IMG/VR virus record: IMGVR_UViG_3300029461_000006 | Origin: a virus | Taxonomy: Duplodnaviria > Heunggongvirae > Uroviricota > Caudoviricetes | Strand: one strand, 5' to 3' | Length of the DNA: 25,512 nt | Shown: piece by piece, positions 1 to 24,213 of the stretch | Layout: each line of letters starts with the position of its first letter | Position numbering within the stretch: position 1 is the first letter of the stretch | The notes under the pieces: generated by a model | What the model was told of the DNA's origin: nothing | The model's database searches: none | What the model saw: the letters and a program-made list of their open reading frames with translations, nothing else | Program-made: the position numbers and the translations under genes

Positions 1-2
1 AT

Positions 3-152
3 CACTTCGTTATTGCACCGACAGAAGATGAGGCCCGCTCTCAGCTTCCTGACGCCCCATGTATTTTCTCTGCCCGTTTTTCCACTGATTCACGCAATTC
101 TCTCAGTTACTGGTGCCTCCCTGTTAACGCTTCTGCTCAGGAGGGACTATGA
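3..152 (+). CDS. icd: icd-like (interference with cell division) protein, 5' end cut by the window edge
   Basis: Homologous to the 3' part of the 73-aa ORF at 7120-7341; stop overlaps the ant ATG in an ATGA junction, as in the P1 ImmI operon. Confidence 0.4.
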   Translation, partial: HFVIAPTEDEARSQLPDAPCIFSARFSTDSRNSLSYWCLPVNASAQEGL

Positions 153-1267
153 GAACGTCATTAGTCACCCGTGAAGAGATGATCGAGGCAATTGAACAGC
201 ACACTGCCTGTATCAGTACCAGGGATATACCAGGCGTTATTGCCAACTACTTCATGATCACCAAACAACTTTACCGGAGAAAGGACAAGAACGCGGTTCA
301 CCGTATCCTGTTGTCTGATATCCGCGAATACCTGCTCGAACAGGGTCATCTGAATTACGCAACCGCCGCAGCCGAAGCACGCAAGGAGGCACACAGAATG
401 AAAGCAACTAACGTTAAATCAGAAAAAATTCATGCACCTTCAGTTCAAGAATCGGAGCTGGTGGTTGTTCAGAATCAGTCTGATGAAATTCCCGTTCTGG
501 AATGGCAGGGAGTGCGTGTAGTGACAACCGAGACTCTTGCTAGAGGGTATGGGACAGAAACAATCCGTATTCGCCAAAATCATCATGAGAACAAAGTACG
601 CTTTGTTGAAGGGAAGCACTTTTTCAAAGTTGAAGGAGAATCATTGCGCGAGTTGAAGCACAGAGTAGCTTTAAACTACTCTGTAAAAATTGCTCGCAAT
701 GTTCGCTCACTCACCCTCTGGACAGAACGCGGCGCAGCCCGCCACGCTAAAATGCTCGAAACCGATCAGGCATGGGCATTCTTTGAAAAACTGGAAGACA
801 GCTACTTCCGACAAAAAGAACAGCAACCGATCGCAATCCCCCAGACGCTTCCTGAAGCCCTACGCCTGGCTGCCGAACTGGCTGAACAAAAGCAACTTCT
901 GGAACAGAAAGCCCACCAGCTAAATCAGCAGCTGGTGGCCGCCGCTCCTAAAGTCGATTTTGCCGACCGGGTATCAGTAGCTAAAGGGATCCTGATTGGG
1001 AATTTTGCAAAGGTTGTTGGACTTAAACAAAACGCGCTGTTTGTCTGGTTACGGGAGAACGGCATCCTGATAGCGTCCGGTGGACGTAAAAATGTGCCGT
1101 TCCAGCAGTACATCAACGCGGGGTATTTCACGGNNNNNNNNNNNNNNNNNNNNNNNNNNNNNNNCTACCAGATACGGTTGACGCCTCAATTAACGGGTAA
1201 AGGCCAGCAGTGGTTGACGCGTAAACTGCTCGATGCTGGCTTGTTAAAACCGGTGGCGGCTGAATAA
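149..1267 (+). CDS. ant1: Phage antirepressor (Ant-like, KilAC-type C-terminal domain), copy A; contains a 31-nt N mask
   Basis: 372-aa ORF with an AGGAGGG RBS; C-terminal region (…VAKGILIGNFAKVVGLKQNALF…GGRKNVPFQQYINAGYF) is typical of phage antirepressor KilAC domains; in-frame internal Met (MKATN) could give a shorter Ant2-like product; paralogous to 7338-8453. Confidence 0.7.
   Translation: MRTSLVTREEMIEAIEQHTACISTRDIPGVIANYFMITKQLYRRKDKNAVHRILLSDIREYLLEQGHLNYATAAAEARKEAHRMKATNVKSEKIHAPSVQESELVVVQNQSDEIPVLEWQGVRVVTTETLARGYGTETIRIRQNHHENKVRFVEGKHFFKVEGESLRELKHRVALNYSVKIARNVRSLTLWTERGAARHAKMLETDQAWAFFEKLEDSYFRQKEQQPIAIPQTLPEALRLAAELAEQKQLLEQKAHQLNQQLVAAAPKVDFADRVSVAKGILIGNFAKVVGLKQNALFVWLRENGILIASGGRKNVPFQQYINAGYFTXXXXXXXXXXXYQIRLTPQLTGKGQQWLTRKLLDAGLLKPVAAE
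1134..1164. other. Run of 31 N (masked or unresolved bases) inside ant copy A
   Basis: Literal n characters; the run is exactly the length of the corresponding segment in copy B (8323-8353), so it preserves the reading frame. Confidence 1.
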
Positions 1268-1274
1268 TAGAAGA

Positions 1275-1296
1275 ATGCCCGGTTGATGCCGGGCAT
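1275..1296. terminator. Hairpin (ATGCCCGG-loop-CCGGGCAT) between the convergent ant and c1 genes; candidate bidirectional terminator
   Basis: Perfect 8-bp inverted repeat with a 6-nt loop, lying between the ant stop (1267) and c1 stop (1300), followed by A/T-rich sequence. Confidence 0.4.
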
Positions 1297-1299
1297 AAT

Positions 1300-2151
1300 T
1301 TATTGCGCGCTTTCGGGGTTGTCGTTTACTGGCTGCCCCTTCTTGGTTTTACGGCTGCGCGTAACTGATGCGGCTGACTTAACCTTTTTCTCTTCGCGAG
1401 TGATGGCAATTTGTTTTTTTACATTTTCAATATCTGCCAGGCGATATATTTTTGCTTGCGGCCAGCGGTCGCAGATGATCGGTTCTATGGAGTCATAAAG
1501 GCTAAATTTTGCTTTTTCGAATTCACCGTTGATGATAATTCCATCACGGAGAGTTTCATCGCAGATAAACACGCCACACAGTGGCACATGGTAACTAACT
1601 GATTTACCATCATTGTAGTTAGGGCTACTGGAAATGTAGTGGACGCGCAGCATTGTTTCGCTAAAGCCGTGTACGCGCATACGGAATTTTTCATCCTCCG
1701 GGTACTGCTTCATTAGCTCTTTTGTTGCTTCCAGGTTCTCTATGTATTTCGCACTGTGCTCATTGATCCCCGCGCTTTTTTGGATGCGAATGTCCTTATC
1801 AATCAGATGAATAATGCGGCCAGCGGTCATGTTGACGCTGTTCACAGCTTCTGTCTGATAAGTTGTAACCTTACGCACACCGCGAAGGATGTTAGGCACT
1901 GGATATAAAATAGTCTTTGGGATATTGAGGTCTGGATACTGTTCCAGTTCCCGCGCCATTAAAGTCCATTTATCAATTTCAGCCTGAATGCTGTCCGTTT
2001 CTTTGAACGGCAGAACGACAACCGGGCGAACAGGACGACCGTCGCTGGCGGCATCAACGTGTTGGGCGCGTGCAACAGCTTTTTTTAGAAAGAGATCCCT
2101 GAAGCTGACGAACTCCTGGTACAGTTGTTCGCCGTAGACATAATTTATCAT
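1300..2151 (-). CDS. c1: C1 repressor of lysis (primary immunity repressor, ImmC)
   Basis: 283-aa ORF recognised as the P1 C1 repressor (MINYVYGEQLYQEF…); strong GGAGGAGG RBS; followed upstream by coi and 17-bp C1 operators. Confidence 0.92.
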   Translation of the reverse strand: MINYVYGEQLYQEFVSFRDLFLKKAVARAQHVDAASDGRPVRPVVVLPFKETDSIQAEIDKWTLMARELEQYPDLNIPKTILYPVPNILRGVRKVTTYQTEAVNSVNMTAGRIIHLIDKDIRIQKSAGINEHSAKYIENLEATKELMKQYPEDEKFRMRVHGFSETMLRVHYISSSPNYNDGKSVSYHVPLCGVFICDETLRDGIIINGEFEKAKFSLYDSIEPIICDRWPQAKIYRLADIENVKKQIAITREEKKVKSAASVTRSRKTKKGQPVNDNPESAQ

Positions 2152-2261
2152 TGATCCTCCTCCAGAATTGACATGGCCAACAACTCACAGCGGATTACAC
2201 TGGGAGTTGTTGGCCACCATTATAGAAGGATCCAACGAAAATAATAGATTTATTAGTGCAT

Positions 2262-2471
2262 TTATTGTGAGTCTGGCTGGTTAGTGGCCATGAGATATTC
2301 GATTGTGTCAGTGAGATCATCCAGGTCGTCTTGGGTGATGCGGTACTCCTGATTGGATATCTTTGAGTAGTGTTCAGCAATGGCGCGGGCAGCGTCGGTT
2401 TCGGCGGGGTCTACAGATAAAGCGTTAGAGCAATGTCTAACGTCGTCGATGGTTGGTGGAATGAAAGCCAT
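2262..2471 (-). CDS. coi: Coi, C1 inactivator
   Basis: 69-aa ORF directly upstream of c1 on the same strand, matching the P1 coi-c1 operon layout and size. Confidence 0.7.
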   Translation of the reverse strand: MAFIPPTIDDVRHCSNALSVDPAETDAARAIAEHYSKISNQEYRITQDDLDDLTDTIEYLMATNQPDSQ

Positions 2472-2709
2472 AATTATGCCTCACTGTATTGACAACACAG
2501 AGCCTGAAGCTCTGACCTACTGTTTCACCCATGATCCATGCTGGGGTAATCTAACAACATTGCGCTGTGTGTAAGATGAGCAATGCATAGCTGTAATGCC
2601 GTTGTATAAGGTTTCCCTGTTTGCTCATTTCCTTCTGAGCCGCTCTACAACGCTGAAGACACATTAAATAGTGAATCCAAAGTCGTATTACGAAACGGCG
2701 GCAAAACTA

Positions 2710-2726
2710 TAATTTATTAGAGCAAT
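2710..2726 (-). promoter_or_regulatory. C1 operator (Op99-type), minus strand
   Basis: Reverse complement reads ATTGCTCTAATAAATTA, 16/17 to the P1 C1 operator consensus ATTGCTCTAATAAATTT. Confidence 0.75.
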
Positions 2727-2792
2727 TGTCAAACAACTATGAAAAACAATCCAGTTTTTGGCTGGTGGAGTGGGATTTTTCTCTCAAAATTT

Positions 2793-2809
2793 ATTGCTCT
2801 AATAATTCT
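2793..2809 (+). promoter_or_regulatory. C1 operator (Op99-type), plus strand
   Basis: ATTGCTCTAATAATTCT, conserved ATTGCTCTAAT core; pairs with the operator at 2710-2726 upstream of coi-c1. Confidence 0.7.
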
Positions 2810-2852
2810 TGATTTTTATGCGCAGCTGGACGTAAACTCCTCTTCGGACCTA

Positions 2853-2886
2853 ATAACTTCGTATAGCATACATTATACGAAGTTAT
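2853..2886. other. loxP: loxP site-specific recombination site (34 bp)
   Basis: Exact ATAACTTCGTATA-GCATACAT-TATACGAAGTTAT: two 13-bp inverted arms around the 8-bp asymmetric spacer, about 420 bp upstream of cre. Confidence 0.97.
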
Positions 2887-2905
2887 ATTAAGGGTTATTG
2901 AATAT

Positions 2906-2978
2906 GATCAATTTACCTGTAAATCCATACAGTTCAATACCTTAGCAGGTCAAATAGTGATCACTTGATCATTTGATC
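2906..2978. promoter_or_regulatory. GATC (Dam site) cluster in the cra/cre upstream region
   Basis: Four GATC sites, three of them within 21 bp (2958-2978); consistent with the Dam-sensitive cre promoter described for P1. Confidence 0.45.
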
Positions 2979-2984
2979 AAGGTT

Positions 2985-3043
2985 GCGCTACGTAAAATCT
3001 GTGAAAAATTGGCGGTGTTAGTCCTACAGATTTCGCGTAGCGC
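2985..3043. repeat. Imperfect 18-bp inverted repeat (16/18) with a 23-nt spacer upstream of cra
   Basis: GCGCTACGTAAAATCTGT … ACAGATTTCGCGTAGCGC, read directly from the sequence. Confidence 0.6.
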
Positions 3044-3075
3044 ACTTAGCACCACCAATCAATCAGAGGTGAAAA

Positions 3076-3297
3076 ATGGGATATTCAACTGCTAAAGTGT
3101 CCACTCATCTTGAGCTTGAGAAAAACCGTGGTTACTGGCGGGCAAAAGGGTTTGATCGTGATAGTTGCCAACTGTCATTATCGCGCGGTGAAGAGAAAAT
3201 AGAACGCACGCGCGGTCGCTGGCGTTTCTATGACGAGAACCATAAACAGGTAAAGGCAGAGCCGATCCTGTACACTTTACTTAAAACCATTATCTGA
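3076..3297 (+). CDS. cra: Cra (cre-associated) small protein
   Basis: 73-aa ORF between loxP and cre, ending 8 nt before the cre ATG; matches the P1 position and size. Confidence 0.55.
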   Translation: MGYSTAKVSTHLELEKNRGYWRAKGFDRDSCQLSLSRGEEKIERTRGRWRFYDENHKQVKAEPILYTLLKTII

Positions 3298-3304
3298 GTG
3301 TTAA

Positions 3305-4336
3305 ATGTCCAATTTACTGACCGTACACCAAAATTTGCCTGCATTGCCGGTCGATGCAACGAGTGATGAGGTTCGCAAGAACCTGATGGATATGTTCAGG
3401 GATCGCCAGGCGTTTTCTGAGCATACCTGGAAAATGCTTCTGTCCGTTTGTCGGTCATGGGCGGCATGGTGCAAGTTGAATAACCGGAAGTGGTTTCCCG
3501 CAGAACCTGAAGATGTTCGCGATTATCTTCTATATCTTCAGGCGCGCGGTCTGGCAGTGAAAACTATCCAGCAACATTTGGGCCAGCTAAATATGCTTCA
3601 TCGTCGGTCCGGTCTGCCACGACCAAGTGACAGCAATGCTGTTTCACTGGTCATGCGACGGATCCGAAAAGAAAACGTTGATGCCGGTGAGCGTGCAAAA
3701 CAGGCGCTGGCGTTCGAACGCACTGATTTCGACCAGGTTCGTTCACTCATAGAAAATAGCGATCGCTGCCAGGATATACGTAATCTGGCATTTCTGGGGA
3801 TTGCTTATAACACCCTGTTACGTATAGCCGAAATTGCCAGGATCAGGGTCAAAGATATCTCACGTACTGACGGTGGGAGAATGTTAATCCATATTGGCAG
3901 AACGAAAACGCTGGTTAGCACCGCAGGTGTAGAGAAGGCACTTAGCCTGGGGGTAACTAAACTGGTCGAGCGATGGATTTCTGTCTCTGGTGTAGCTGAT
4001 GATCCGAATAACTACCTGTTTTGCCGCGTCAGAAAAAATGGTGTTGCCTCGCCATCATCCACCAGCCAGCTATCAACTCGCGCCCTGGAAGGGATTTTTG
4101 AAGCAACTCACCGATTGATTTACGGAGCTAAGGATGACTCTGGCCAGAGGTACCTGGCCTGGTCTGGACACAGTGCCCGTGTCGGTGCCGCGCGAGATAT
4201 GGCCCGCGCCGGAGTTTCAATACCGGAGATCATGCAAGCTGGTGGCTGGACCAACGTAAATATTGTCATGAACTACATTCGTAACCTGGATAGTGAAACG
4301 GGGGCAATGGTGCGCCTGCTGGAAGATGGCGATTAG
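3305..4336 (+). CDS. cre: Cre tyrosine site-specific recombinase
   Basis: 343-aa ORF recognised as Cre (MSNLLTVHQNLPALPVDATSDEVRKNLMDMFRDRQAFSEHTWKMLLSVCRSWAAWCKLNNRKWFPAEPEDVRDYLLYLQARGLAVKTIQQHLGQLNMLHRRSGLPRPSDSNAVSLVMRRIRKEN…); adjacent loxP. Confidence 0.98.
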   Translation: MSNLLTVHQNLPALPVDATSDEVRKNLMDMFRDRQAFSEHTWKMLLSVCRSWAAWCKLNNRKWFPAEPEDVRDYLLYLQARGLAVKTIQQHLGQLNMLHRRSGLPRPSDSNAVSLVMRRIRKENVDAGERAKQALAFERTDFDQVRSLIENSDRCQDIRNLAFLGIAYNTLLRIAEIARIRVKDISRTDGGRMLIHIGRTKTLVSTAGVEKALSLGVTKLVERWISVSGVADDPNNYLFCRVRKNGVASPSSTSQLSTRALEGIFEATHRLIYGAKDDSGQRYLAWSGHSARVGAARDMARAGVSIPEIMQAGGWTNVNIVMNYIRNLDSETGAMVRLLEDGD

Positions 4337-4353
4337 CCGTTCATTTGCGCCCG

Positions 4354-4370
4354 ATTGCTCTAATTATTTG
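4354..4370 (+). promoter_or_regulatory. C1 operator immediately downstream of cre
   Basis: ATTGCTCTAATTATTTG, conserved operator core; 17 nt upstream of the ORF at 4387. Confidence 0.7.
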
Positions 4371-4386
4371 ATATTTATGGTGACAT

Positions 4387-4698
4387 ATGCGGAAGGATTT
4401 CAAAATAGACGGAAAATATGTGGTGCTGTCTGTAAGCTCTCAAATTCAGTCACCATCTGTCATTGTCACCGTAAAGTTGAGCGATAGGATGCCTGATATC
4501 GACTCGATATCTGTTGCGTTCCCCGTTAAAAGCATGCGGAGTGCTGAACATTTTGTGCTGAATGCAACGGAGGAGGAAGCGCGGCGCGGGCTTACTAGAG
4601 TGATGGCGGAATTTGGCGAACTCCTGGGTAAGGTAAACAATTCCCTTTCAATCAGTTCAGCAAGATCCAAAGCGTTAACAGCTTCCTTGATGAAATAA
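4387..4698 (+). CDS. Hypothetical 103-aa protein in the position of P1 c8
   Basis: ORF between cre and ref preceded by a C1 operator; no motif I recognise. Assignment to c8 is positional only. Confidence 0.35.
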   Translation: MRKDFKIDGKYVVLSVSSQIQSPSVIVTVKLSDRMPDIDSISVAFPVKSMRSAEHFVLNATEEEARRGLTRVMAEFGELLGKVNNSLSISSARSKALTASLMK

Positions 4699-4828
4699 AA
4701 AAGCCTGGCAAGGAGCCAGGCTACACAAAAGAGCGGGTTTGTATTCCGCATCCAATCAATCAAGAAGGAGTATAGCACACAGGTACTGAAGTGAAAAAAT
4801 GTGATTCGCGATAAACAAAATATCTACC

Positions 4829-4858
4829 ATTGCTCTAATTGATTGCTATAATTGAGCC
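4829..4858 (+). promoter_or_regulatory. Tandem overlapping C1 operators with an embedded TATAAT (ref promoter region)
   Basis: ATTGCTCTAATTGATTG (4829-4845) overlapping ATTGCTATAATTGAGCC (4842-4858); TATAAT at 4847-4852. ref is known to be C1-controlled in P1. Confidence 0.7.
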
Positions 4859-4912
4859 GCAGTTTTTGTCAACTACGAAGACGTTGCCATTACTTAACTC
4901 CTTGACATCATT

Positions 4913-4938
4913 GGCGGCCATCAGGCCGCCTTTTTTTT
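4913..4938 (+). terminator. Intrinsic-terminator-like hairpin with a T8 tract, ending 5 nt before the ref ATG
   Basis: GGCGGCC-ATCA-GGCCGCC followed by TTTTTTTT. Confidence 0.6.
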
Positions 4939-4943
4939 GCCAT

Positions 4944-5504
4944 ATGAAAACAATCGAACAAAAAATTGAACAGCACCGTAAGTGGCAGAAGGCAGCCAGA
5001 GAACGAGCGATCGCTCGGCAACGGGAGAAGTTGGCTGATCCGGCCTGGCGAGAATCTCAATATCAGAAAATGCGGAATACTATCGACCGCCGTATCGCTA
5101 AACAGAAAGAGCGCCCACCAGCCAGCAAAACGCGGAAAAGCGCGGTAAAGATAAAATCTCGTGGCTTGAAGGGGCGAACACCGACAGCGGAGGAACGGAG
5201 CATCACCAATGCTCTTGGCGCTCTCCCCTGCATTGCCTGCTACATGCATGGAGTAATATCTGAAGAGGTATCTCTGCACCATATCTCCGGTCGTACCGCG
5301 CCGGGTTGTCACAAAAAGCAATTGCCCCTTTGTAGATGGCACCACCAGCATGCAGCACCGGCTGAAGTAAGAGAAAAATTCCCCTGGCTGGTCCCTGTTC
5401 ATGCTGATGGTGTGGTTGGAGGCAAGAAAGAATTCACCTTGCTGAACAAGTCAGAGATGGAGTTGCTGGCTGACGCCTATGAAATGGCAAACATCATGCA
5501 CTAA
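4944..5504 (+). CDS. ref: Ref recombination-enhancement protein (HNH-family nuclease)
   Basis: 186-aa product starting MKTIEQKIEQHRKWQ…; Cys/His-rich HNH-like segment (CIACYMHG…HHISGR…CHKKQLPLCRWHHQH). The longer 221-aa ORF in the track starts at a TTG inside the operator and is unlikely. Confidence 0.88.
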   Translation: MKTIEQKIEQHRKWQKAARERAIARQREKLADPAWRESQYQKMRNTIDRRIAKQKERPPASKTRKSAVKIKSRGLKGRTPTAEERSITNALGALPCIACYMHGVISEEVSLHHISGRTAPGCHKKQLPLCRWHHQHAAPAEVREKFPWLVPVHADGVVGGKKEFTLLNKSEMELLADAYEMANIMH

Positions 5505-5542
5505 TAAATATATTATTTTTAATCTTAAATGATTGACAACTG

Positions 5543-5552
5543 ACAAGTGACT
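5543..5552 (+). promoter_or_regulatory. ACAAGTGACT motif upstream of mat (candidate late-promoter box)
   Basis: The same core recurs upstream of prt/darB (21128-21148) and, reverse-complemented, upstream of lyz (24864-24873). Confidence 0.3.
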
Positions 5553-5570
5553 TGAGTCAGAATCATCACA

Positions 5571-5633
5571 CGCCCGGTACGGATGGATCCCTTTTCAAAT
5601 ATTCCATGGACGGCACAGTCTGAGTACCGGGCG
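5571..5633. repeat. Perfect 10-bp inverted repeat (CGCCCGGTAC … GTACCGGGCG) with a 43-nt spacer in the mat leader
   Basis: Read directly from the sequence. Confidence 0.6.
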
Positions 5634-5655
5634 CTACCTTCAGTTGTATTGCTAA

Positions 5656-5680
5656 GCCGCCGCTGGTGGCTTTTCTTTTT
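5656..5680 (+). terminator. Hairpin plus T-rich tract 14 nt upstream of the mat ATG (terminator or attenuator candidate)
   Basis: GCCGCC-GCT-GGTGGC (one G-U pair) followed by TTTTCTTTTT. Confidence 0.35.
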
Positions 5681-5693
5681 TATAGGGGGCGCT

Positions 5694-6335
5694 ATGGATA
5701 AGAAAATATGCGTTGTTTCGATGAGCGTCGGTAAACCGGCGTCAATGACTGCTGCATGGATCAACAACGAGTTGATAATGGCTGAGCGGACCAGCTACCC
5801 TGAACGCCGCCGCGATATGGAACTCCAGCTGCTGCGCGAATTGCGAGAAAAAGAGGAAAAGGGTTTTATCGTGCTGGTGGAAGAGGAAAACAGCTTTATT
5901 ACGGGTCGAGTTGGCCAGCGTGTAAGGTTGCGCGATCCCTTCATGAACGGCAGGCCGGTACTAATTGAAGCAATGCAGATTTACAAGGAGCTGGAACGCC
6001 AGAAAGCAATCAAGTTACCGCGCAAGGAATCCGGCAAATACATCCTCCACCAAAGCATCTTCGATTCCGAACACGATAAAAAAGGCGATGAATTTTTCAA
6101 CATCAACTGGAGCGAAATAACGACAGAGCATGTTCTGACGTTACTATGTTGCTTTGCGACGGAATACAACAACGTTGCAAGCGCCGACTACATCAGGGCA
6201 ATGGCTGGAGAAGTTGAGGCACGCCAGGAACCATCGTTACTAAGCCCTCTGATTAACATAATTCGCGGCACACAGAGACTTGCGGAAAAAAGAGTTCCAC
6301 ACGGAATCTTAACTGGAAAGGGAAACTATTTTTAA
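5694..6335 (+). CDS. mat: Mat (maturation control) protein
   Basis: Product starting MDKKICVVSM… with a GGGGG RBS; sits after ref as in P1. The track ORF starts earlier (5583) at a weaker start. Confidence 0.75.
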   Translation: MDKKICVVSMSVGKPASMTAAWINNELIMAERTSYPERRRDMELQLLRELREKEEKGFIVLVEEENSFITGRVGQRVRLRDPFMNGRPVLIEAMQIYKELERQKAIKLPRKESGKYILHQSIFDSEHDKKGDEFFNINWSEITTEHVLTLLCCFATEYNNVASADYIRAMAGEVEARQEPSLLSPLINIIRGTQRLAEKRVPHGILTGKGNYF

Positions 6336-6368
6336 CATCCCCAAATCCTTTTGGGGAACAACTCATGC

Positions 6369-6680
6369 TTACAATTTCTGCCCCATACATTTTCTCCAGG
6401 CACTCCCCTCATTACCGTTGCCGAGGAAAGTAGAGGTTGCATATGGAATGCCTCTGATTTGTGTTGATGTGAATGGACCATCAGACGTCGAAGTTGTGCG
6501 CAGTTTTGATGTAAACTCGTAATTTCCACTGATGCCTTTCTCTGCCAGAGCTTTTGATTTTGTGATAACTAAATCTGCACATTTCTCTGCGGCTACATAT
6601 TGCGGGTCTTTTTCAGCTTTTCCGGCACATGCAGTTATCGTTAAAACAATAGCTGCGGCTAACAAATTACCTGGTTTCAT
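6369..6680 (-). CDS. Small predicted lipoprotein (103 aa), divergent from the ImmI-like operon
   Basis: N-terminal signal peptide with lipobox (MKPGNLLAAAIVLTITAC|AGK); AAGGT RBS; no recognisable catalytic motif. Confidence 0.6.
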   Translation of the reverse strand: MKPGNLLAAAIVLTITACAGKAEKDPQYVAAEKCADLVITKSKALAEKGISGNYEFTSKLRTTSTSDGPFTSTQIRGIPYATSTFLGNGNEGSAWRKCMGQKL

Positions 6681-6785
6681 CTGAATACCTTATTAAGTGC
6701 ATTAAAAACAGTAGGTTGCCAAGGTTTTAAACAAATTTCAATTCCCCATGACGCTCAACATGAGCAAAAATAACACACAAACATC

Positions 6786-6802
6786 ATTGCTCTAATTAAT
6801 TT
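6786..6802 (+). promoter_or_regulatory. C1 operator (Op51-like) at the head of the ImmI-like operon
   Basis: ATTGCTCTAATTAATTT, 16/17 to consensus; candidate sigma70 promoters follow (TTGATC 6844-6849 / TATAGT 6867-6872, 17-bp spacer). Confidence 0.7.
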
Positions 6803-6930
6803 GATTTTTTAGGTCAAATAAACTACCATTGCGCACTGCCCTATTGATCTCCTTACCGTTCAGGCTTATAGTTCCTACGTCGTAGCAAATTCTGCGACCG
6901 GGTTTAGCAGCCTGAATGTACATGCGGACA

Positions 6931-6960
6931 ACCGCAGATATCCGATATTGCGGTATTTTT
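6931..6960 (+). terminator. Hairpin plus T5 tract between the a1/b1 boxes and the c4 candidate (attenuator or terminator candidate)
   Basis: ACCGCAGATAT-CCG-ATATTGCGGT (one bulged G) followed by ATTTTT. Confidence 0.3.
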
Positions 6961-6990
6961 GTGTCCGTAAAACCACGTTACGCCCGAATT

Positions 6991-7070
6991 ATGGTGGGGC
7001 GTGATGGGGAGGCTTCGGCCTGCTGGTTTCATGTACGCCAGTCTGCTAACCCCGTCACGTCCTGCCACCC
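6991..7070 (+). ncRNA. c4: Candidate c4-type antisense RNA (secondary immunity repressor); boundaries approximate
   Basis: About 80-nt segment closed by GGTGG/CCACC; contains CATGTAC (7030-7036) and CTGCTAAC (7043-7050), complementary to the repeated TGTACATG and GTTTAGCAGC boxes at 6902-6924 and 7071-7108, the latter overlapping the icd RBS. Confidence 0.45.
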
Positions 7071-7119
7071 GTTTAGCAGCGGGTAGCAGGTTGTTAAACC
7101 TGTACATGAGGCCGTAACT

Positions 7120-7341
7120 ATGGTTAATGCCAATCCTTGCGCACGCCCGGAATTCATCTGGCGTTTCTATTCTTGTCAAAAACGTCACTATCACTTCGTT
7201 ATCGCACCGACAGAAGATGAGGCCCGCTCTCAGCTTCCTGACGCCCCATGTATTTTCTCTGCCCGTTTTTCCACTGATTCACGCAATTCTCTCAGTTACT
7301 GGTGCCTCCCTGTTAACGCTTCTGCTCAGGAGGGACTATGA
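7120..7341 (+). CDS. icd: Icd-like small protein, translationally coupled to ant
   Basis: 73-aa ORF with a GAGG RBS inside the a2/b2 target region; stop overlaps the ant start (ATGA). A 78-aa alternative in another frame (7127-7363) overlaps ant by 26 nt and fits the coupled layout less well. Confidence 0.5.
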   Translation: MVNANPCARPEFIWRFYSCQKRHYHFVIAPTEDEARSQLPDAPCIFSARFSTDSRNSLSYWCLPVNASAQEGL

Positions 7342-8480
7342 GAACATCGTTAGTTACCCGTGAAGAGATGATCGAGGCAATTGAACAGCACACTGCCTGT
7401 ATCAGTACCAGGGATATACCTGGCGTTATTGCCAACTACTTCATGATCACCAAACAACTTTACCGGAGAAAGGACAAGAACGCTGTTCACCGTATCCTGC
7501 TGTCTGATATCCGTGAATACCTGCTCGAACAGGGGCATCTGAATTACGCAACCGTCGCAGCCGAAACACGCAAGGAGGCACACAGAATGAAAGCAACTAA
7601 CTTTAAATCAGAAAAAATTCATGCACCTTCAGTTCAGGAATCGGAGCTGGTGGTTGTTCAGGATCAGCATGATGAAATTCCCGTTCTGGAGTGGCAGGGG
7701 GTGCGTGTAGTGACAACCGAGACTCTTGCTAAAGGGTATGGGACAGAAACAATCCGTATTCGCCAGAATCATCATGAGAACAAAGTGCGCTTTGTTGAAG
7801 GGAAGCACTTTTTCAAGGTTATTGGCGATGAGCTGAAAAATTTGCGGGTAGCTTTAAACTACTCACAAAATCCAGTCTCACCCAAAGCCCGCTCACTCAC
7901 TCTCTGGACAGAACGCGGCGCTGCCCGCCACGCTAAAATGCTCGAAACCGATCAGGCATGGGCGTTCTTTGAAAAACTGGAAGACAGCTACTTCCGACAA
8001 AAAGAACAGCAACCGATCGCAATCCCCCAGACGCTTCCCGAAGCACTGCGCCTGGCTGCCGAACTGGCTGAACAAAAGCAACTATTGGAACAGAAAGCCC
8101 ACCAGCTAAATCAGCAGCTGGTGGCCGCCGCTCCTAAAGTCGAGTTTGCCGACCGGGTATCAGTAGCTAAAGGGATCCTGATTGGGAATTTTGCAAAGGT
8201 TGTTGGACTTAAGCAAAACGCGCTGTTTGCCTGGTTACGGGAGAACGGCATCCTGATAGCGTCCGGTGGACGTAAAAATGTGCCGTTCCAGCAGTACATC
8301 AACGCGGGGTATTTCACGGTGAAAGAAGTGGTGCTGGATGATGAAGATGGCTACCAGATACGGTTGACGCCTCAATTAACGGGTAAAGGCCAGCAGTGGT
8401 TGACGCGTAAACTGCTCGATGCTGGCTTGTTAAAACCGGTGGCGGCTCAATAATGGAAGAATGCCCGGTTGATGCCGGGC
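7190..8480 (+). repeat. Copy B of the ~1.29-kb diverged direct repeat (icd 3' end + ant + hairpin)
   Basis: Collinear with 1-1294; differences include a clustered divergent patch at 7820-7906 (copy A 631-720). Confidence 0.9.
7338..8453 (+). CDS. ant1: Phage antirepressor (Ant-like, KilAC-type), copy B, within a complete ImmI-type module
   Basis: 371-aa ORF with an AGGAGGG RBS; same family as 149-1267; internal in-frame Met as a candidate Ant2 start; preceded by operator, c4 candidate and icd. Confidence 0.75.
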   Translation: MRTSLVTREEMIEAIEQHTACISTRDIPGVIANYFMITKQLYRRKDKNAVHRILLSDIREYLLEQGHLNYATVAAETRKEAHRMKATNFKSEKIHAPSVQESELVVVQDQHDEIPVLEWQGVRVVTTETLAKGYGTETIRIRQNHHENKVRFVEGKHFFKVIGDELKNLRVALNYSQNPVSPKARSLTLWTERGAARHAKMLETDQAWAFFEKLEDSYFRQKEQQPIAIPQTLPEALRLAAELAEQKQLLEQKAHQLNQQLVAAAPKVEFADRVSVAKGILIGNFAKVVGLKQNALFAWLRENGILIASGGRKNVPFQQYINAGYFTVKEVVLDDEDGYQIRLTPQLTGKGQQWLTRKLLDAGLLKPVAAQ

Positions 8481-8483
8481 AAA

Positions 8484-8492
8484 GGGGGGGGG
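8484..8492. repeat. G9 homopolymer at the junction between the ant terminator and the lxc relic
   Basis: Nine consecutive G; the equivalent position next to intact lxc (13623-13626) has GGGG. Confidence 0.95.
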
Positions 8493-8494
8493 AA

Positions 8495-8595
8495 TTAATC
8501 AGCATTCAGGAGCAATGCGTTATCTATGATGATCTGCTCCCATTCTTCGAATGCCCGATCGCGGACGCCCTAGGGAACACTGTCTGTTTTGAAAT
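8495..8595 (-). pseudogene. Relic of the lxc 3' end (last ~33 codons) with an in-frame stop, abutting the res 3' end
   Basis: 101 nt at about 90% identity to 13631-13731. Minus-strand translation gives FKTDSVP*GVRDRAFEEWEQIIIDNALLLNAD* against lxc FKTNSVPQGVRDRAFEEWEQIIIDNALLLNAD*; 8 of the 10 differences are synonymous. Confidence 0.6.
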
Positions 8596-8626
8596 AAGGA
8601 GGTTTTCACCTCCTTTTAAACTGGAA

Positions 8627-11539
8627 TTATGGTAATGCGCTCTTGATTAGCTGATAAATATCATCATTAGCAAACTGCGTTCTGAATTCAACTTTAACAG
8701 ACCGACTTATTTGATTGAAAAGCGCCTGGGCATGTTCAATTTTCCGTTTTTCTTCAAGCCGTAAACTATCCTTACTATCTACGTTTTTTGTTTCAATGAT
8801 AAAGTTAAGATAATCACCTTCTGCTGTTTTTACAACATAAGCAAAATCGGGTGAGTAAGTGTATCCACCAGCTACCGGGATCTTAATAGAATTCTTCGGT
8901 ATCTTTGAAAAAACAACAACAGACTGGATCTCTCTATCTGTTATATTACGCCTTTCAAGCTCTGAATCATAAAAAACTTCTTCAAAAAGATAAGTATCTA
9001 ATGGTGCTTTTGCATTATCCTGCAATACACCAAGATCACTTGATAATACCTCATCTAGAGGATTACCATCAGCATTTGTGAACTTTGTAGGATGAATTGA
9101 ACCCGAAATCAAATTATATCCGAGGCTGAATTTGTTAAACGAATTGTTCAACAAATACTTACTAAAACCAGATTTAATTTTTCTGATTGTTTGAATATTA
9201 AGGTATTCAGTGATATTAATAGTGTCTTTTATATCACAAAAAACTTTATGTAAAGTATCGTGTTTAACAAAAATAGTTTGTGATAAGTTATCGAGAAACT
9301 CTCGATAGCTCATTGTGTTTAGCTTAGCAAAGTCATCGTCATCACTGACAATGCTTTTCGACATTGCCATATCATTGTGGATGTAAATTTTATCAATGCG
9401 AGTATGAACGCCTGATTTGGTAAATCGTTCTGTTTCTTCGAGCATGAATGACTTGAAAATGGATAAAAATTCACTTTCACTGTTTATTTTGTACTCAATC
9501 ACCGCTTTTTGATTGATCAAATCCCATAGTTCTTTCAGCTCACTGAACTTACCAACACGCATTTTAGTGCGTCTTTTTCCATCAGTAGCTTTTTTGATTT
9601 TACCAGGTTTCACTCCTATAGGGAATGCTGCTGGATATTTGGATTTTAAGCGGCTATATGCATCTGAATCTTTGAAATTATCATTGTCATCAATGATTTC
9701 ATCATTGAAAAGTTCATTCATTAGTGCTCTGGATGAAAGCTCAGGATACTGAGCCCTGATTTGTTCCTTAAGCTCTTGAGTAAACTTACTTGGAACCCTT
9801 TCTTTGAAAGAACTCTCGTTGACCTCTTTAACAAGTGAGTCAACAAAATCTTTTTCTGTAAAATCAACATAATAGTTGAGAGTGAAATTGCGATCTTTCA
9901 CTCGACACATGTATTCATTCACAGGAAGACGCAAACCGCGCCCTACCTCTTGAAGCTTAGATGTGGTACTACCGCTCGAACGGAGCTTACAGATCTGAAA
10001 GACATTAGGATTATCCCACCCCTCACGCAACGTCCATTTTGAGAAAATAAACCGACGGGGATTATCTAAAGACAGCAAAAGCTCTTTGTCATGAAGGATT
10101 TCGTTGATTTCCTGCTCGATTTTATCATCCTTATCACTGTTATCTTTTGAGAAATAACCACCATGAACGGAAGATATATCTTTGACTGTTTTTTCAAGAT
10201 AGTTTTTATAAAACGCATCTTGCTCTGTTTTTAACAGTTCATTAGCTTCTGCCAGAACGTATTCTTCGAATTTGGTTTTCAGGCTTCCGGCAATATCATT
10301 ACCGTCACGATAGCCTTCAATATCGTCAATAAAGAAAAGAGTAAGAGGCTTTATGCGTGGCCTTTGTGTCAGAAGTTCTTTTTCTAACTTAAAGTGTTCT
10401 TTGACAGCCTTACGCATCATATTATCAGCAAGTGTCTGATCGTAAGAATAGGGATTTATTGAGCTACCAATCTTCAGCTCAATACCATTACTCAACACTG
10501 CTGTGCTCTTGTTTAAAGCATCAAGAGTTAAATCATGGATCGCACTATGCGTCTTAGACAGTGATTCACCTTTAGCTAACTTAAACGTTTTTTTATTGTT
10601 GTTTTCATTCAGTTCAAATGTAGCTTCTTTTCCGTCAGATTTGACGAATTTGAGGTTTGCGTTACCATCGCCGACTATATCCTCAATATATGCATCAATA
10701 CCTTTAACGAGATCCTCGTTAAATGCGTCCACGGCTGTAAGACGATAAACCAGGTTCTTATAGCCTTCGCTAAAGGTTGCGCCATAGCGGATAATATATT
10801 GTGCGTTAAATTTCTCTATGTTTTCCCATGTTTTTTTACCAGTAGGAAATCTATGTGGTTCGTCAATGATGATAAATGGTTTTACAGCTCTGAGCGCGTC
10901 AACTGGAGTATTAAACTGATTATCAAGCAAGCCAGTATCGTAAGTATCCGTTAAAGACTTAGAGTTGATCATTCCTGAGTTAATAACAAGAACGTGTATA
11001 TATTTTTTATTGAAGTTACTTGCTTCAACAAAATCATGTATAGCCTGAGGCATATACGATTTTGTATTTTTGCCAGAGTTTTTCTGACTTTCAACAACGT
11101 AAGTTCTCAGCTCACGCTCGTAATCATCCCGGAAGTGTTCTTTTAAAGCATCACTTTTTAAAAAGTTAACGGTTCCGGCCTTGATAGATAGAGTCGGAAC
11201 AATGATGATAAACTTGTTAATACCAAATGATTTATTCAGGTCAAAAATAGTTTTGGTATAGGTGTACGTCTTGCCTGTACCTGTCTCCATAGAAACATCA
11301 ATGATGTTGCTTTTAGCATCGTAATTATCTTTTGAGTGCTCAATACCATTAAACTCCTGAACATTTTTTATGTTGTTGTAGTATTGTTGTTCAGATAGTT
11401 CCAGTTCTGGATTAGCTAACAGGCGAATAGTAACATTATCCGTCAGGTGAGGTATTGCGGAAACAAAAACATTCATCACCGCATCGACTCCGGCTTTCTG
11501 ATGCGGCAAGTTCTTTTCGAGAGTGAACCCTTTTGACAT
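8627..11539 (-). CDS. res: Type III restriction-modification Res subunit (SF2 helicase/endonuclease, EcoP1I-type)
   Basis: 970-aa ORF recognised as P1 Res; Walker A (METGTGKTY) and DEPH box (IIIDEPHRF); start lies 2 nt after the mod stop (translational coupling). Confidence 0.93.
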   Translation of the reverse strand: MSKGFTLEKNLPHQKAGVDAVMNVFVSAIPHLTDNVTIRLLANPELELSEQQYYNNIKNVQEFNGIEHSKDNYDAKSNIIDVSMETGTGKTYTYTKTIFDLNKSFGINKFIIIVPTLSIKAGTVNFLKSDALKEHFRDDYERELRTYVVESQKNSGKNTKSYMPQAIHDFVEASNFNKKYIHVLVINSGMINSKSLTDTYDTGLLDNQFNTPVDALRAVKPFIIIDEPHRFPTGKKTWENIEKFNAQYIIRYGATFSEGYKNLVYRLTAVDAFNEDLVKGIDAYIEDIVGDGNANLKFVKSDGKEATFELNENNNKKTFKLAKGESLSKTHSAIHDLTLDALNKSTAVLSNGIELKIGSSINPYSYDQTLADNMMRKAVKEHFKLEKELLTQRPRIKPLTLFFIDDIEGYRDGNDIAGSLKTKFEEYVLAEANELLKTEQDAFYKNYLEKTVKDISSVHGGYFSKDNSDKDDKIEQEINEILHDKELLLSLDNPRRFIFSKWTLREGWDNPNVFQICKLRSSGSTTSKLQEVGRGLRLPVNEYMCRVKDRNFTLNYYVDFTEKDFVDSLVKEVNESSFKERVPSKFTQELKEQIRAQYPELSSRALMNELFNDEIIDDNDNFKDSDAYSRLKSKYPAAFPIGVKPGKIKKATDGKRRTKMRVGKFSELKELWDLINQKAVIEYKINSESEFLSIFKSFMLEETERFTKSGVHTRIDKIYIHNDMAMSKSIVSDDDDFAKLNTMSYREFLDNLSQTIFVKHDTLHKVFCDIKDTINITEYLNIQTIRKIKSGFSKYLLNNSFNKFSLGYNLISGSIHPTKFTNADGNPLDEVLSSDLGVLQDNAKAPLDTYLFEEVFYDSELERRNITDREIQSVVVFSKIPKNSIKIPVAGGYTYSPDFAYVVKTAEGDYLNFIIETKNVDSKDSLRLEEKRKIEHAQALFNQISRSVKVEFRTQFANDDIYQLIKSALP

Positions 11540-13622: not shown

Positions 13623-13731
13623 GGGGAAGTTTAATCCGCATTGAGAAGCAATGCATTATCTATGATGATCTGCTCCCATTCTTCGAATGCCCGGTCACGG
13701 ACGCCCTGGGGAACGCTGTTAGTTTTGAAAT
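13623..13731. repeat. Direct-repeat partner of 8486-8595 (authentic lxc 3' end plus downstream sequence)
   Basis: Together the two copies bracket the mod-res cassette in direct orientation. Confidence 0.85.
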
Positions 13732-20300: not shown

Positions 20301-21117
20301 GCATCAGCACCACATCAACGACTGTACTGGTCCCGTTTGCGTCAAAAGTACCGGTAGGCAAGCGGTGAGCACCAAGAAATTCAGCTTTCCGTGATAGGCG
20401 CAGGCGTAACCGCTTCATGTTTGAACCTGAAACAATGGACGGCGGCACAATCACGCACATGAATCCGCCTGGCTTTATCTTGTCCAGCATGCGGAGCATG
20501 AAGTAAGAACCCATGTCCGTTTCTTCTGCGTAAGGCTTATCGATGTTGCGTGTGTTATCACGACCACCGAACGGAACGTTACCCACAACATGGTCGAATG
20601 AATCGTTAGGCGTGCTTACAGCCAGCTGTTCGAACGGGGAAATCTGTACGCTGTCTTCCGGGTGTAACAGCTGGTTTATACGACCGGAAACACTGCTGAT
20701 CTCAGTCGCAGTCATCACCGTACCAACCGGTTTTGTCTCATTAAAAACGCCGGTGCCCGCCGATGGTTCCAGAGTGTTACCTACGTCCGCGCCGTAGAGC
20801 TTCATGATCTCCCAGACACCTTCAGCGATCGGCTTTGGTGTGTAATATTCGGAGACGGACCCGCCAATGCCGCCTTCACCGGTGTACCCAGCCAGGATCT
20901 GGCGCTGTTCATCTGTCAGTGTCGCGCCGTCCACCAGCGAATTAAGCAAATCTATCGCCTTCTGATTCGCCTCCCGGCGCAGTCGGTCATAGCTTTTGCC
21001 TTCCACCTTTTCCACGCCGTATTTAATCGGCGCTCGGTGAGATGTTATTGCCCTAATGTATTTCAATATTTCGCTGACACTTGAACAGCGAAACACCCCC
21101 ATAGATAGCTTGTTCAT
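14350..21117 (-). CDS. darB: DarB antirestriction protein (giant methyltransferase-helicase fusion)
   Basis: 2255-aa ORF, the length of P1 DarB; N-terminal methyltransferase-like NVPF motif (GNVPFGG), SF2 helicase Walker A (GFGTGLGKTT) and DEGH box (VIADEGHNYRN); AAGGA RBS. Confidence 0.9.
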   Translation of the reverse strand: MNKLSMGVFRCSSVSEILKYIRAITSHRAPIKYGVEKVEGKSYDRLRREANQKAIDLLNSLVDGATLTDEQRQILAGYTGEGGIGGSVSEYYTPKPIAEGVWEIMKLYGADVGNTLEPSAGTGVFNETKPVGTVMTATEISSVSGRINQLLHPEDSVQISPFEQLAVSTPNDSFDHVVGNVPFGGRDNTRNIDKPYAEETDMGSYFMLRMLDKIKPGGFMCVIVPPSIVSGSNMKRLRLRLSRKAEFLGAHRLPTGTFDANGTSTVVDVVLMRKHPAEMAEKIPLVDESTLESANVLWPTFISGKWFEKDGRRFVHGTQEKGFQGRIEVRADGQIDNQALKAKLIHRFESRIDWSLLNMAEPSPTADVVDEGEMRLINGVWQKYAGGRWIEADAGKELKIDVASYGADSWEALQRNLTTTEGRLGMTFTQMANVRDKYTTSISDDMVQLVDWINSQPEKYRERLYRGAMIGRMLIEYQDMKAAGHSAEQIEQQRLSLVSRLQAEIDRFGNPGRGPIAKLSGSGARAWFAFRGAIKLDGTISDELTGKLVTHDSSASYDSTSYQDTLRYLYSDLTRDPIQLDDFRLAFTGELPASDDELLNLLASTPGIAVSPYGGIVPFARATSGDINEIVVPKQEFLATLPDGPVKNNVLNQLAAIEEKRIKTPAENIRFKLNSRWFDRSVILEFLQENGYPDLRYVQSVQLEGDEMVSDTYHGGDGLFVGHRYGVVQRKDKETGEIRYEWDRKSGENATGFPAQLEKYLNGARIGGKDSATANGYREQMALLEDQFNKWIKTHDRYDELVAKYNDVFNSNIPYEHSGDPLGLKGLSGKRQPFDYQNSEVRRLSEDGRGILGFGTGLGKTTTALALEAFNYENGRSTRTAYVVPKSVLENWYYEAKEFLSEEAFSNYLFVGLDVLMDGDQIRQVPVLDENGKPVLGTDGTPVMRDALKLADEATITARMNAIPHSNYRAVVFTKEQYARIPLRDDTVDEHAQDMLYDFVAAGRVASAMDSDSHRKEAARRRVLSEYSDTGTEKAEKYPYFEDMGFDSVIADEGHNYRNSYKNGREASQLAYLPTSAVAQSARDMAIKNAYLMKKNGGRGPVLLTATPVVNTPIDAYNMLSHVLPKEYWQKMGIYSPDDFVKFFGKTRLETVQKISGEVEEKMALVGFENLDALRGIFHRWTTLKTAEDVKDTVEIPELDEHQQDAPLTEEQLAAYEELRQQAEAAAKANNGVTTSVNEDGVIEHEKARPIFSIIRDMDRVCTDMDLYYRRITYRFLPEYADAVQQLADSLPKQATSEDDDSDDSITQQSQYSLIDKGEFIQLQVPEAFEQEVNKRLARFGIDEQTVTHPVTPKYAKLIATLKEFFPEGKQIIFTDEKTQHQKLKRIICNALNLEPSKVGILNAQTVAEAGKTGKKLKAVKPPKELPDEPTDAQIAKYNEQMALYDAYIAQQNEMSLGGLEKIAADFQEGRTPIIICNKKAEVGINLHRGTTDIHHLTLPWTPASIAQRNGRGARVGSNRASVRVHYYCGKGSFDEYRLKTLKRKAGWISDILRSDKSEMENADANDMIEMQMYTAKDDGERLAMMQVQMDKAKAAQRARQKEQATIDLQNYIKAQHAAGEDVEVLTAELERSKAELEKTTAEVAKFKQAVMAKAADNADWKARWGSVHHTDRMLLAQYRASLKNAIQRKANISQAISRYEKLLNRTQKAATDIKRLRPLVEDAINKGILDVDPDLVNHASEFLVIGDRSWRVGQYYDCAGDIVRIKSLDFDSQRADVEIIFTFKGTKSGNWDVKTLDKQVDVTPDEDAVMQKISGGVSIAGINDIISCDDFYRFQQRGMIKITDSYGVQTTESGYSIDFVGTYTDPLKHAVYPDRRDGALKSSIAKWVLGMMSEGNNRQIRSAETFLVELFGSNYGDVIASYGDTLSPEAIQEKIADAIARMPEKTSQGATRNGDSELEVTNAIFGTNEFRASDYEITTAQFGTIGIYSNKAEIKQAMDAASARIAAEREANLNHAVAALTQSWVTAIREAATTGKITPAIADVVNNGSKFMDAYQMDAVKLPSAYGQLSYRMTYNLVSMFSDLAILGLVDLNEVTPELLSMRKNHVEILQRINTVLAGRTDEEKQADADRINLTLGNITEEEIAARNEKQEELSSIQGDATSIAQSLGLNYRVSTADLKMMYAPKFAAGEVFGLQEASGMKGVLFRAKDAIKAKFGARWLPAKAKNSDFPGNWWIIETKHNVADVLAVIQQYA

Positions 21118-21183: not shown

Positions 21184-23914
<2,731 letters not shown>

Positions 23915-23925
23915 CCACCAAAAAT

Positions 23926-23947
23926 AACCCCGGCGGCTGCCGGGGTT
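23926..23947 (-). terminator. Hairpin (CCCCGG-loop-CCGGGG) with a T-rich tract on the minus strand; terminator for the lyz transcript
   Basis: On the minus strand the hairpin is followed by TTATTTTT; lies between the convergent pro (stop 23914) and the small minus-strand ORF (stop 23959). Confidence 0.5.
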
Positions 23948-23958
23948 CTCGTTAACTA

Positions 23959-24213
23959 TTATCGCCTTCTCCTGCGTGCCATATATTTGCGCACCGCGCG
24001 GCGTGGACAATCTGAAGCGGTTTCTTTCTGCTGCATCAATCTTGCAGCCATGCTCAAAAATGTCAGGCACAGCCGAAGCCCGGCATACAATAGCGGTTCC
24101 AGTGGCCACGTCTCATTGAGCACATATACCGCCATGAAAATCGAGTCAAAAACTATCGCCGCCAGCGATAACTTCATTGTCGAAAGTCGGCGGAGCTGCC
24201 GGAGTTTATTCAT
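23959..24213 (-). CDS. Small predicted membrane protein (holin-like?) coupled to lyz
   Basis: 84-aa ORF whose ATG overlaps the lyz stop (ATGAATAA); two hydrophobic stretches (LSLAAIVFDSIFMAVYVL; LLYAGLRLCLTFLSMAARL) and a very basic C-terminus (RRAVRKYMARRRRR); followed by the minus-strand terminator. Confidence 0.35.
   Translation of the reverse strand: MNKLRQLRRLSTMKLSLAAIVFDSIFMAVYVLNETWPLEPLLYAGLRLCLTFLSMAARLMQQKETASDCPRRAVRKYMARRRRR

Follow-up and report, generated by a model that had tools for sequence, protein, structure and literature searches.

Why should a P1-like element carry one antirepressor gene (ant) against the 3' end of its c1 repressor gene and a second, nearly identical one beyond mat, so that a 1.3-kb direct repeat encloses c1, loxP, cre, ref and mat? 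This question is raised by the IMG/VR virus record IMGVR_UViG_3300029461_000006, a stretch of 25,512 nt that is referred to here, at its full length, as the window. The original prediction described the repeat as two diverged paralogous copies, contrasted ant beside c1 with the 3' end of pacB at this place in P1, and saw in the repeat a substrate for deletion or amplification of the enclosed block. The analysis points to another answer, namely that the window probably belongs to a P1-like phage-plasmid with two independent immI-type cassettes, placed at two polymorphic intergenic sites: the pacB|c1 gap (site A) and the gap from mat to the res/ulx region (site B).

The two copies of the repeat run in the same direction at 1-1295 and 7190-8481 and form one alignment (MAFFT), each comprising the 3' part of icd, a complete ant and a GC-rich hairpin. 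This confirms the icd'-ant-hairpin direct copies that had been described around the c1-loxP-cre-ref-mat block. The copies are 95.1% identical, with 62 mismatches in 1258 comparable columns and 9 gap columns counted on this alignment, which also contains 14 perfect runs of at least 30 nt, the longest being 142 nt. A repeat search returned three collinear blocks, 1-300/7190-7489 (98%), 697-996/7883-8182 (96%) and 1165-1295/8351-8481 (98%), a similarity that is far above chance. A patch of approximately 90 nt inside the ORF6N domain (621-712 in copy A, 7810-7898 in copy B) is a distinct allele with two indels. Both ant open reading frames (ORFs) are intact, and the proteins, of 372 amino acids for Ant A and 371 for Ant B, each have an ORF6N domain followed by a KilAC/ANT domain (Pfam). 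They are identical at 338 of 373 residues, the 11 masked residues being scored as mismatches. The claim of two antirepressor alleles at two distinct loci was borne out. The flanks to the right of the two copies differ. The repeat is real and consists of two loci, not of one locus assembled twice, because the copies are separated by 62 substitutions and a patch of another allele, and because the arrangement recurs in finished plasmids.

Cassette B, at the mat|res site, lies wholly within the window and has the following features.

6786 to 6802, plus strand: C1 operator of cassette B, ATTGCTCTAATTAATTT, which departs from the 17-bp consensus at 1 position and lines up with P1 Oc4/Op51 and P7 Op(c4).
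6844 to 6872, plus strand: sigma-70-like promoter, TTGATC-17-TATAGT, at the position of P1 P1c4/P51b (consensus match only, from a promoter scan).
6866 to 6918, plus strand: a1/b1 decoy target boxes for C4 (Rfam RF03163 c4-a1b1, 53.2 bits against a gathering score of 46.7).
6987 to 7072, plus strand: C4, the antisense RNA of this cassette (full-length match to the Rfam model RF01695, E=8e-12, at 71.7 bits with the gathering score at 45).
7073 to 7079, plus strand: C4 target a2, TTAGCAG, recognized by sequence complementarity.
7102 to 7111, plus strand: C4 target b2, GTACATGAGG, covering the icd Shine-Dalgarno sequence, 8 nt before the icd ATG at 7120.
7120 to 7341, plus strand: icd of cassette B, 73 amino acids, homologous to P1 Icd.
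7338 to 8453, plus strand: ant of cassette B, 371 amino acids, with an ATGA overlap with icd; Pfam ORF6N at residues 116-201 and KilAC at 259-360.
8461 to 8482, plus strand: hairpin closing cassette B, with the stem as in cassette A, followed by a G-run where A has a T tract.

These features are those of the immI regions of P1 and P7: a C1 operator over the promoter, a1/b1 boxes, a C4 RNA (RF01695), a2/b2 boxes with b2 on the icd Shine-Dalgarno sequence, a 73-amino-acid Icd overlapping ant, nested Ant1/Ant2 starts, and a C-terminal KilAC (ANT) domain (PF03374, E=4e-32 for Ant B). The internal start of ant B, at 7587 (AGGAGG-N8-ATG), is in frame and aligned to P1 ant2. The C4 loops are b' TCATGTAC and a' CTGCT(AA), and give cognate antisense runs of 11 nt (b) and 7 nt (a), against at most 7 nt for non-cognate C4 b-loops. 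The feature of P1-type immI that cassette B does not share is its position, given that it lies between mat and res and not upstream of kilA-repL. There are further differences from P1: the central ORF6N domain was not detected in P1 Ant1, the overall nucleotide identity is approximately 65% even though the 3' third of ant B reaches approximately 86% with P1 ant, the terminal hairpin is another one, and more than one cassette is present per genome. The hairpin of cassette B is without a T tract and was not called as a terminator by the terminator scan. The stretch over which cassette B is homologous to cassettes at other genomic sites, the canonical immI of P7 among them, is bounded by the operator and the hairpin, and for this reason the portable unit is placed at approximately 6786-8481, or about 1.7 kb.

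Cassette A, at the pacB|c1 site, is cut by the start of the window and has the following features.

1 to 152, plus strand: icd' of cassette A, the last 49 codons and the stop, truncated by the window start; its translation equals residues 25-73 of the Icd from copy B and shows homology to P1 Icd.
149 to 1267, plus strand: ant of cassette A, 372 amino acids, overlapping icd by ATGA and with an Ant2-type start in frame at 398; Pfam ORF6N at residues 116-202 and KilAC/ANT at 260-361.
1275 to 1296, no strand assigned: hairpin closing cassette A, between the convergent ant and c1; it is the right end of the repeat, with the boundary set against empty sites.

The icd-ant overlap, the Ant1/Ant2 nesting, the KilAC domain and the terminal hairpin are thus all present in cassette A. 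Position 1 corresponds to codon 25 of icd, and the left end of the repeat is the edge of the window and no biological boundary. The internal Shine-Dalgarno sequence and ATG at 398, in frame with the start at 149, align to the P1 ant2 start. A run of 31 N at 1134-1164 inside ant A looks like masked sequence and not like a true gap, since neither the reading frame nor the alignment to copy B is broken by it. The hairpin scores as an intrinsic terminator on both strands, with 9 pairs on the plus and 8 on the minus strand (terminator scan). The stop of ant A is 32 nt from that of c1, the 3' end of ant and the hairpin abutting the 3' end of c1 and displacing the 24-nt spacer of P1, and this junction is identical in RCS47, p95JB1A and NZ_LR130557.1.

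What lies upstream of position 1 can be read by proxy. The pacB|c1 cassette of NZ_LR130557.1, a plasmid without copy B, agrees with copy A at 100% identity, and in relatives the site-A cassette extends approximately 420 nt further upstream, to a C1 operator (TTTGCTCTAATAAATTG) placed directly after the pacB stop in NZ_LR130557.1, ECdb0007_p3, p95JB1A and RCS47. The operator is followed by an isrK-scoring leader, a C4 RNA (75.9 bits), the target boxes and icd; the leader of the closest relatives scores 60.8 bits for isrK (Rfam RF01394, gathering score 50). An upstream operator and a c4 belonging to copy A, for which a search beyond the contig had been recommended, are therefore found in relatives (NZ_LR130557.1 and ECdb0007_p3) and are not readable in the window, whose cassette A presumably has its own of both. 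The arrangement resembles the IsrK-orf45-anrP module of Salmonella Gifsy-1 (RF01394), in which an isrK-like leader stands upstream of a C4-like RNA and an antirepressor gene; it differs in that the downstream genes here are icd and ant under a P1 C1 operator, and in that the element would be present in the window by analogy with its relatives. Our reading of the alignment is that the isrK-like segment would work as the a1/b1 decoy boxes. In two relatives (loci L001, 5729-5806, and L003, 3726-3803), this leader has a1/b1-like boxes followed by a stem and a T run, and a short terminated leader RNA may be made from it. The PGAP label for this leader is often 'ash family protein'.

P1 has the 3' end of pacB beside c1, as the original prediction stated; this end is 24 nt from c1, with no ant there. 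Nonetheless, the ant|c1 junction is the majority state, being found in 407 of the 705 matching P1-like records of PLSDB, while the P1-type pacB|c1 junction, with site A empty, is found in 314 of 703. The same ant|c1 junction occurs in the phages RCS47, JL22 and vB_EcoM-673R5, and is annotated as ant beside c1 in RCS47. It has also been published, given that Venturini et al. 2019 (PMC6906374) describe ant between pacB and c1 in pTZ20_1P, as in RCS47. The position beside c1 is for this reason no anomaly. An ant next to c1 in a reference P1 had been named as evidence that would count against the original prediction; P1 itself has none there, and P1-like phages do have it.

Occupation of site B is rare, with 16 of 758 PLSDB records and 14 of 5426 complete E. 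coli genomes. One of the 16 is pSvP1 (MN510446), for which Venturini et al. 2019 (PMC6906374) report icd-ant homologues in the res-mod region (RD-1). Comparison of empty with filled sites indicates that the cassette replaces a 24-nt spacer at site A and a 43-nt spacer at site B, both between convergent genes; neither target-site duplications nor recombinase genes were found at the cassette ends. All four combinations of the two sites exist: neither is filled in P1, only site A in RCS47, NZ_LR130557.1 and 673R5, only site B in NZ_CP122822.1, NZ_CP076303.1 and NZ_LC511659.1, and both in at least eight finished plasmids, namely p95JB1A with its twin CP021340, CP099053/CP099043, NZ_CP100532.1, AP026456, ECdb0007_p3 and NZ_CP128972.1. 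The last is probably the same plasmid as AP026456, with equal length and match coordinates. The two-site plasmids are independent and finished, with origins that include Australia, Japan, Thailand and Switzerland. In ECdb0007_p3, where both cassettes are present, a single alignment of 7431 nt matches window positions 1165-8595 at 99.66% identity; PLSDB holds no record of at least 99% over the region, and the representative genomes of GTDB gave relatives of 91-97% only. In p95JB1A there are three cassettes, the third being the canonical one upstream of kilA-repL, and the source of the window probably also has this third cassette, outside the window. The double-cassette records were identified by junction queries and inspection of each record. 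Counting them by the coverage of a 9-kb query was dropped, given that BLAST pieces from either copy match both. Stx phages were likewise considered and set aside: a search with window 1-9000 listed many Stx-converting phages, but when the cassette served as the sole query, all the phages returned were P1-like, and the Stx hits must therefore come from another part of window 1-9000. In PLSDB, many P1-like plasmids are typed by MOB-suite as IncHI1B and not IncY, which looks like a replicon-typing quirk of these plasmids.

Further cassettes, in reverse orientation, occur in relatives between cra/ref and mat and between pro and the lysozyme gene. In AP026456 (L097, 222-10351) and NZ_CP100503.1 (L096, 5720-10351), the reverse cassette lies between cra/c8 and mat, in place of ref. 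AP026456 has three cassettes within 10 kb (A and B forward, C reverse), and its inverted pair around mat could allow inversion of that segment. In two other loci (L068 and L069), the reverse cassette lies between pro and the lysozyme gene; the equivalent place in the window, approximately 23910-23966, has no cassette.

The C4 loops were extracted from 90 cassettes from IMG/VR, GTDB, PLSDB, P1 and P7, and represent two classes of leader and no fewer than 13 combinations of loops. In 12 of these 13 types, the complementarity between C4 loops and a2/b2 targets is exact, and the remaining one, ACCTTGGAC/AAGGCC, pairs through G-U wobbles. Pairing runs of the b loop are of 8-11 nt for cognate and at most 8 nt for non-cognate combinations. 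The b'/a' loops are CACTAAC/CTGTC in P1, CACAATC/CTGCT in P7 and CATGTAC/CTGCT in cassette B, which means that cassette B joins the a' loop of P7 to a b' loop that is absent from both phages. Loop differences of this size are said, from work by Citron and Schuster in 1990, to make P1 and P7 heteroimmune. In ECdb0007_p3 and p95JB1A, the pacB-side cassette has the loops ACCTTGGAC/AAGGCC with an isrK-like leader, while the mat-side cassette has TCATGTAC/CTGCT with a P1-type a1b1 leader, as in window copy B. Cassette A of the window is accordingly expected to be of the ACCTTGGAC/AAGGCC type. The suggestion that the two alleles possibly differ in c4 specificity thus stands by proxy, through the different C4 loops of these two plasmids, and not by direct reading, given that the leader of copy A is outside the window. 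Across the 12 multi-cassette genomes examined, the cassettes of one genome always differ in their C4 loop combination (12 of 12), which is suggestive only.

The ant bodies point to exchange between sites. The copy-B allele of the variable patch is 100% identical to site-A alleles elsewhere (L014-L018 and L076), the copy-A allele is also found at site B elsewhere (L030, L031 and L034), and no single locus or record matches all segments of ant B above 98%, so that ant B is a new mosaic. Because the patch alleles cross between sites, reassortment among a pool of cassettes is indicated and not one local duplication. The copies are diverged, as originally described, and yet they are not simple paralogues; by the distribution of their alleles, the ant bodies are mosaics from a shared pool.

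In P1 and P7, C4 made from the leader pairs with a2/b2 and blocks the translation of icd and so the expression of ant, and Ant, if made, inactivates the C1 repressor. C1 is interchangeable between relatives. In the present set, nearly every locus has a c1 with 98-100% conservation, against values down to 86% for neighbouring genes such as pacB, and this fits an immunity specificity that resides in C4, as known for P1 and P7. By the explanation that we consider probable, each cassette would be a self-contained unit of approximately 1.7 kb, from C1 operator to hairpin, with a C1-repressible promoter, a leader with the decoy boxes a1/b1, then C4, a2/b2 with b2 over the icd ribosome-binding site, icd, translationally coupled and nested ant1/ant2, and the hairpin. 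Given the different leaders and C4/target types in the closest relatives, each cassette would be silenced by its own C4 only, and the approximately 95% identity of the icd-ant bodies would result from free exchange of ant segments among cassettes. A prophage with several heteroimmune cassettes would be immune to superinfecting relatives of each C4 type that it carries, and the same phage as an invader would escape any resident without even one of its C4 types. The 1.3-kb direct repeat would then be a by-product of cassette stacking that can support exchange between cassettes.

Several points weigh against this explanation. The expression and the immunity roles of these cassette types are predicted from sequence and from P1 and P7, and the operator, leader and C4 of copy A, being outside the window, take their presumed presence and type from the relatives. 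The difference in C4 types in 12 of 12 genomes is partly explained by site-linked lineages, with isrK-type leaders at site A and a1b1-type leaders at sites B and C; by a rough estimate, random draws would be all distinct in approximately 13% of cases, which makes the observation no significant test, and the B and C cassettes of AP026456 share b' and differ in a' only. Some extra ant genes are broken, by a frameshift in NZ_CP076303.1 and ECdb0007_p3 and by a Tn3 interruption in NZ_LC511659.1, which indicates that extra copies are not always maintained. Lastly, the Ants considered here have the ORF6N domain that is not found in P1 Ant1, and their binding to C1 is assumed.

One alternative, which we regard as unlikely, is that the extra cassettes are relics without present function, and that only the canonical immI beside kilA-repL, outside the window, matters. 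The broken extra ant genes of several relatives fit it, and P1 and P7 manage without extra cassettes. In the window, nonetheless, neither ant ORF is interrupted and cassette B has its regulatory leader complete. Most P1-like plasmids have a cassette at site A, as do phages that were recovered in virion form, and the covariation of C4 loops with their targets, seen in at least 13 types, implies that the pairing is under selection.

A recent duplication within this genome, after which the copies diverged as paralogues, would account for icd-ant bodies that are 95% identical and for a shared hairpin that differs from that of the canonical P1-type cassette. It appears quite unlikely in view of the complete identity of copy A with site-A cassettes of plasmids without site B, of the patch alleles found at the opposite site in other records, and of the closest double-cassette relatives, in which the leader classes (isrK-like versus a1b1) and the C4 loops differ.

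Equally improbable is the proposal that the repeat serves as a recombination substrate deleting or amplifying c1-loxP-cre-ref-mat, for instance giving c1-less lytic derivatives. The mechanism itself is possible: the perfect runs between the copies, up to 142 nt and 14 of them of at least 30 nt, exceed the minimal length needed by RecA, and ref lies inside the enclosed block. In addition, an IMG/VR draft contig (L038, IMGVR_UViG_2548876945_000003, 87.9 kb, locus 2017-4407) has pacB, one cassette and ulx, with c1-coi-loxP-cre-ref-mat missing. The corresponding pacB-cassette-ulx junction was nonetheless found in 0 of 809 PLSDB records, and the draft contig may be a misassembly by repeat collapse. 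The deletion would remove c1, cre and loxP and could not be kept by a stable lysogen, the excised circle would be without a replicon, and the approximately 5% divergence of the copies would lower recombination. That a single icd-ant locus was placed twice, or that a repeat was mis-joined, is hardly credible: the window does start inside the repeat, as contigs often do, and L038 shows the junction that repeat collapse would give, but the 62 differing positions, the indels and the different right flanks, together with the same two-site arrangement in independent finished plasmids, of which ECdb0007_p3 covers the whole 7.4-kb interval including both copies, contradict it.

Beyond two independent cassettes in one element, a combinatorial immunity in the P1 family can be proposed tentatively, with less than even confidence. 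It would comprise at least 13 C4/target types in two leader classes, on two to four portable cassettes per genome at five or more intergenic sites, with a prophage immune to each type that it carries and an invader prevailing over residents without one of its own. The ant bodies would serve as handles for recombination, by which leaders, ant alleles and sites are reshuffled, and occasional excision of c1-lox-cre, leading to repressor-less lytic variants, may occur. With C1 nearly invariant in P1-like elements, the C4/ant layer would decide which relatives coexist or displace each other. P1-like elements commonly carry resistance genes in E. coli and Salmonella, and the presence of extra immI cassettes with different C4 types in most of them would help in predicting superinfection, incompatibility and induction among co-circulating phage-plasmids. 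For annotators and assemblers, near-repeats of 1.3-1.7 kb, two to four per genome, call for caution.

In its insertion sites and gene content, the window matches the pacB|c1 ant of RCS47, pTZ20_1P, JL22 and vB_EcoM-673R5 and the icd-ant of pSvP1 RD-1 (PMC6906374). It differs from the RCS47 type and from pSvP1 in that both sites are filled, ant B is a new mosaic, and res-mod is kept after cassette B. Apart from Venturini et al. 2019, no literature on multiple or heteroimmune C4 cassettes in P1-like plasmids was found, and the C4 RNAs, their specificities and the resulting direct repeat are not described in the literature found. The window shows an ordinary polymorphism of the family with a new mosaic, and some novelty lies only in the family-wide pattern of multiple cassettes with multiple specificities.

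The block enclosed by the repeat, and the gene that accompanies cassette B, are as follows.

1300 to 2151, minus strand: c1 repressor gene, a 283-amino-acid ORF, first gene of the enclosed block, annotated C1 in collinear records.
2853 to 2886, plus strand: loxP, the canonical 34-bp site, by exact string match.
3305 to 4336, plus strand: cre, 343 amino acids, annotated cre or site-specific integrase in collinear records.
4829 to 4845: C1 operator before ref, from an operator scan.
4839 to 5504, plus strand: ref, in the extent of the listed ORF; Ref as annotated in relatives covers its 3' 561 nt, and collinear records name it a Ref family protein.
5583 to 6335, plus strand: mat, the final gene of the backbone ahead of the site-B insertion; collinear records give it as maturation control protein.
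6369 to 6680, minus strand: orf103, predicted to encode a small lipoprotein (MKPGNLLAAAIVLTITAC...); it belongs to the site-B insertion and is oriented divergently from the cassette.

Besides the operator of cassette B, C1 operator matches with 1-3 mismatches to the 17-bp consensus are found at 2246-2262, 2710-2726, 2793-2809, 4354-4370, 4829-4845, 21047-21063 and 24897-24913. They are at the positions expected from P1, that is, near c1/coi/lox, downstream of cre, ahead of ref and in the late region, and the predicted layout of the C1 regulon is conserved in the window. In AP026456 and NZ_CP100503.1, a HigB/RelE-type toxin pair lies upstream of cre.

orf103 is present only where site B is filled, has a signal peptide ending in LTITAC, and matched no Pfam family. 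Next to c4, P1 has sim and P7 has the lipoprotein gene upf50.5 in a similar position, and orf103 may be a superinfection-exclusion gene. Homology to the P7 lipoprotein gene upstream of c4 was ruled out, given that there is no nucleotide homology and that the homology to P7 starts at the operator.

To the right of cassette B, a 101-nt direct repeat, 90% identical (8495-8595 and 13631-13731), lies on either side of the res-mod genes. Its second copy forms the 3' end of a ulx-like gene, and its first, immediately behind cassette B, is a detached fragment of the same gene end. ECdb0007_p3 and p95JB1A have no res-mod, and there ulx follows cassette B without anything in between. The type III restriction-modification pair looks like a later insertion or joint, and could be lost by recombination between the 101-nt repeats.

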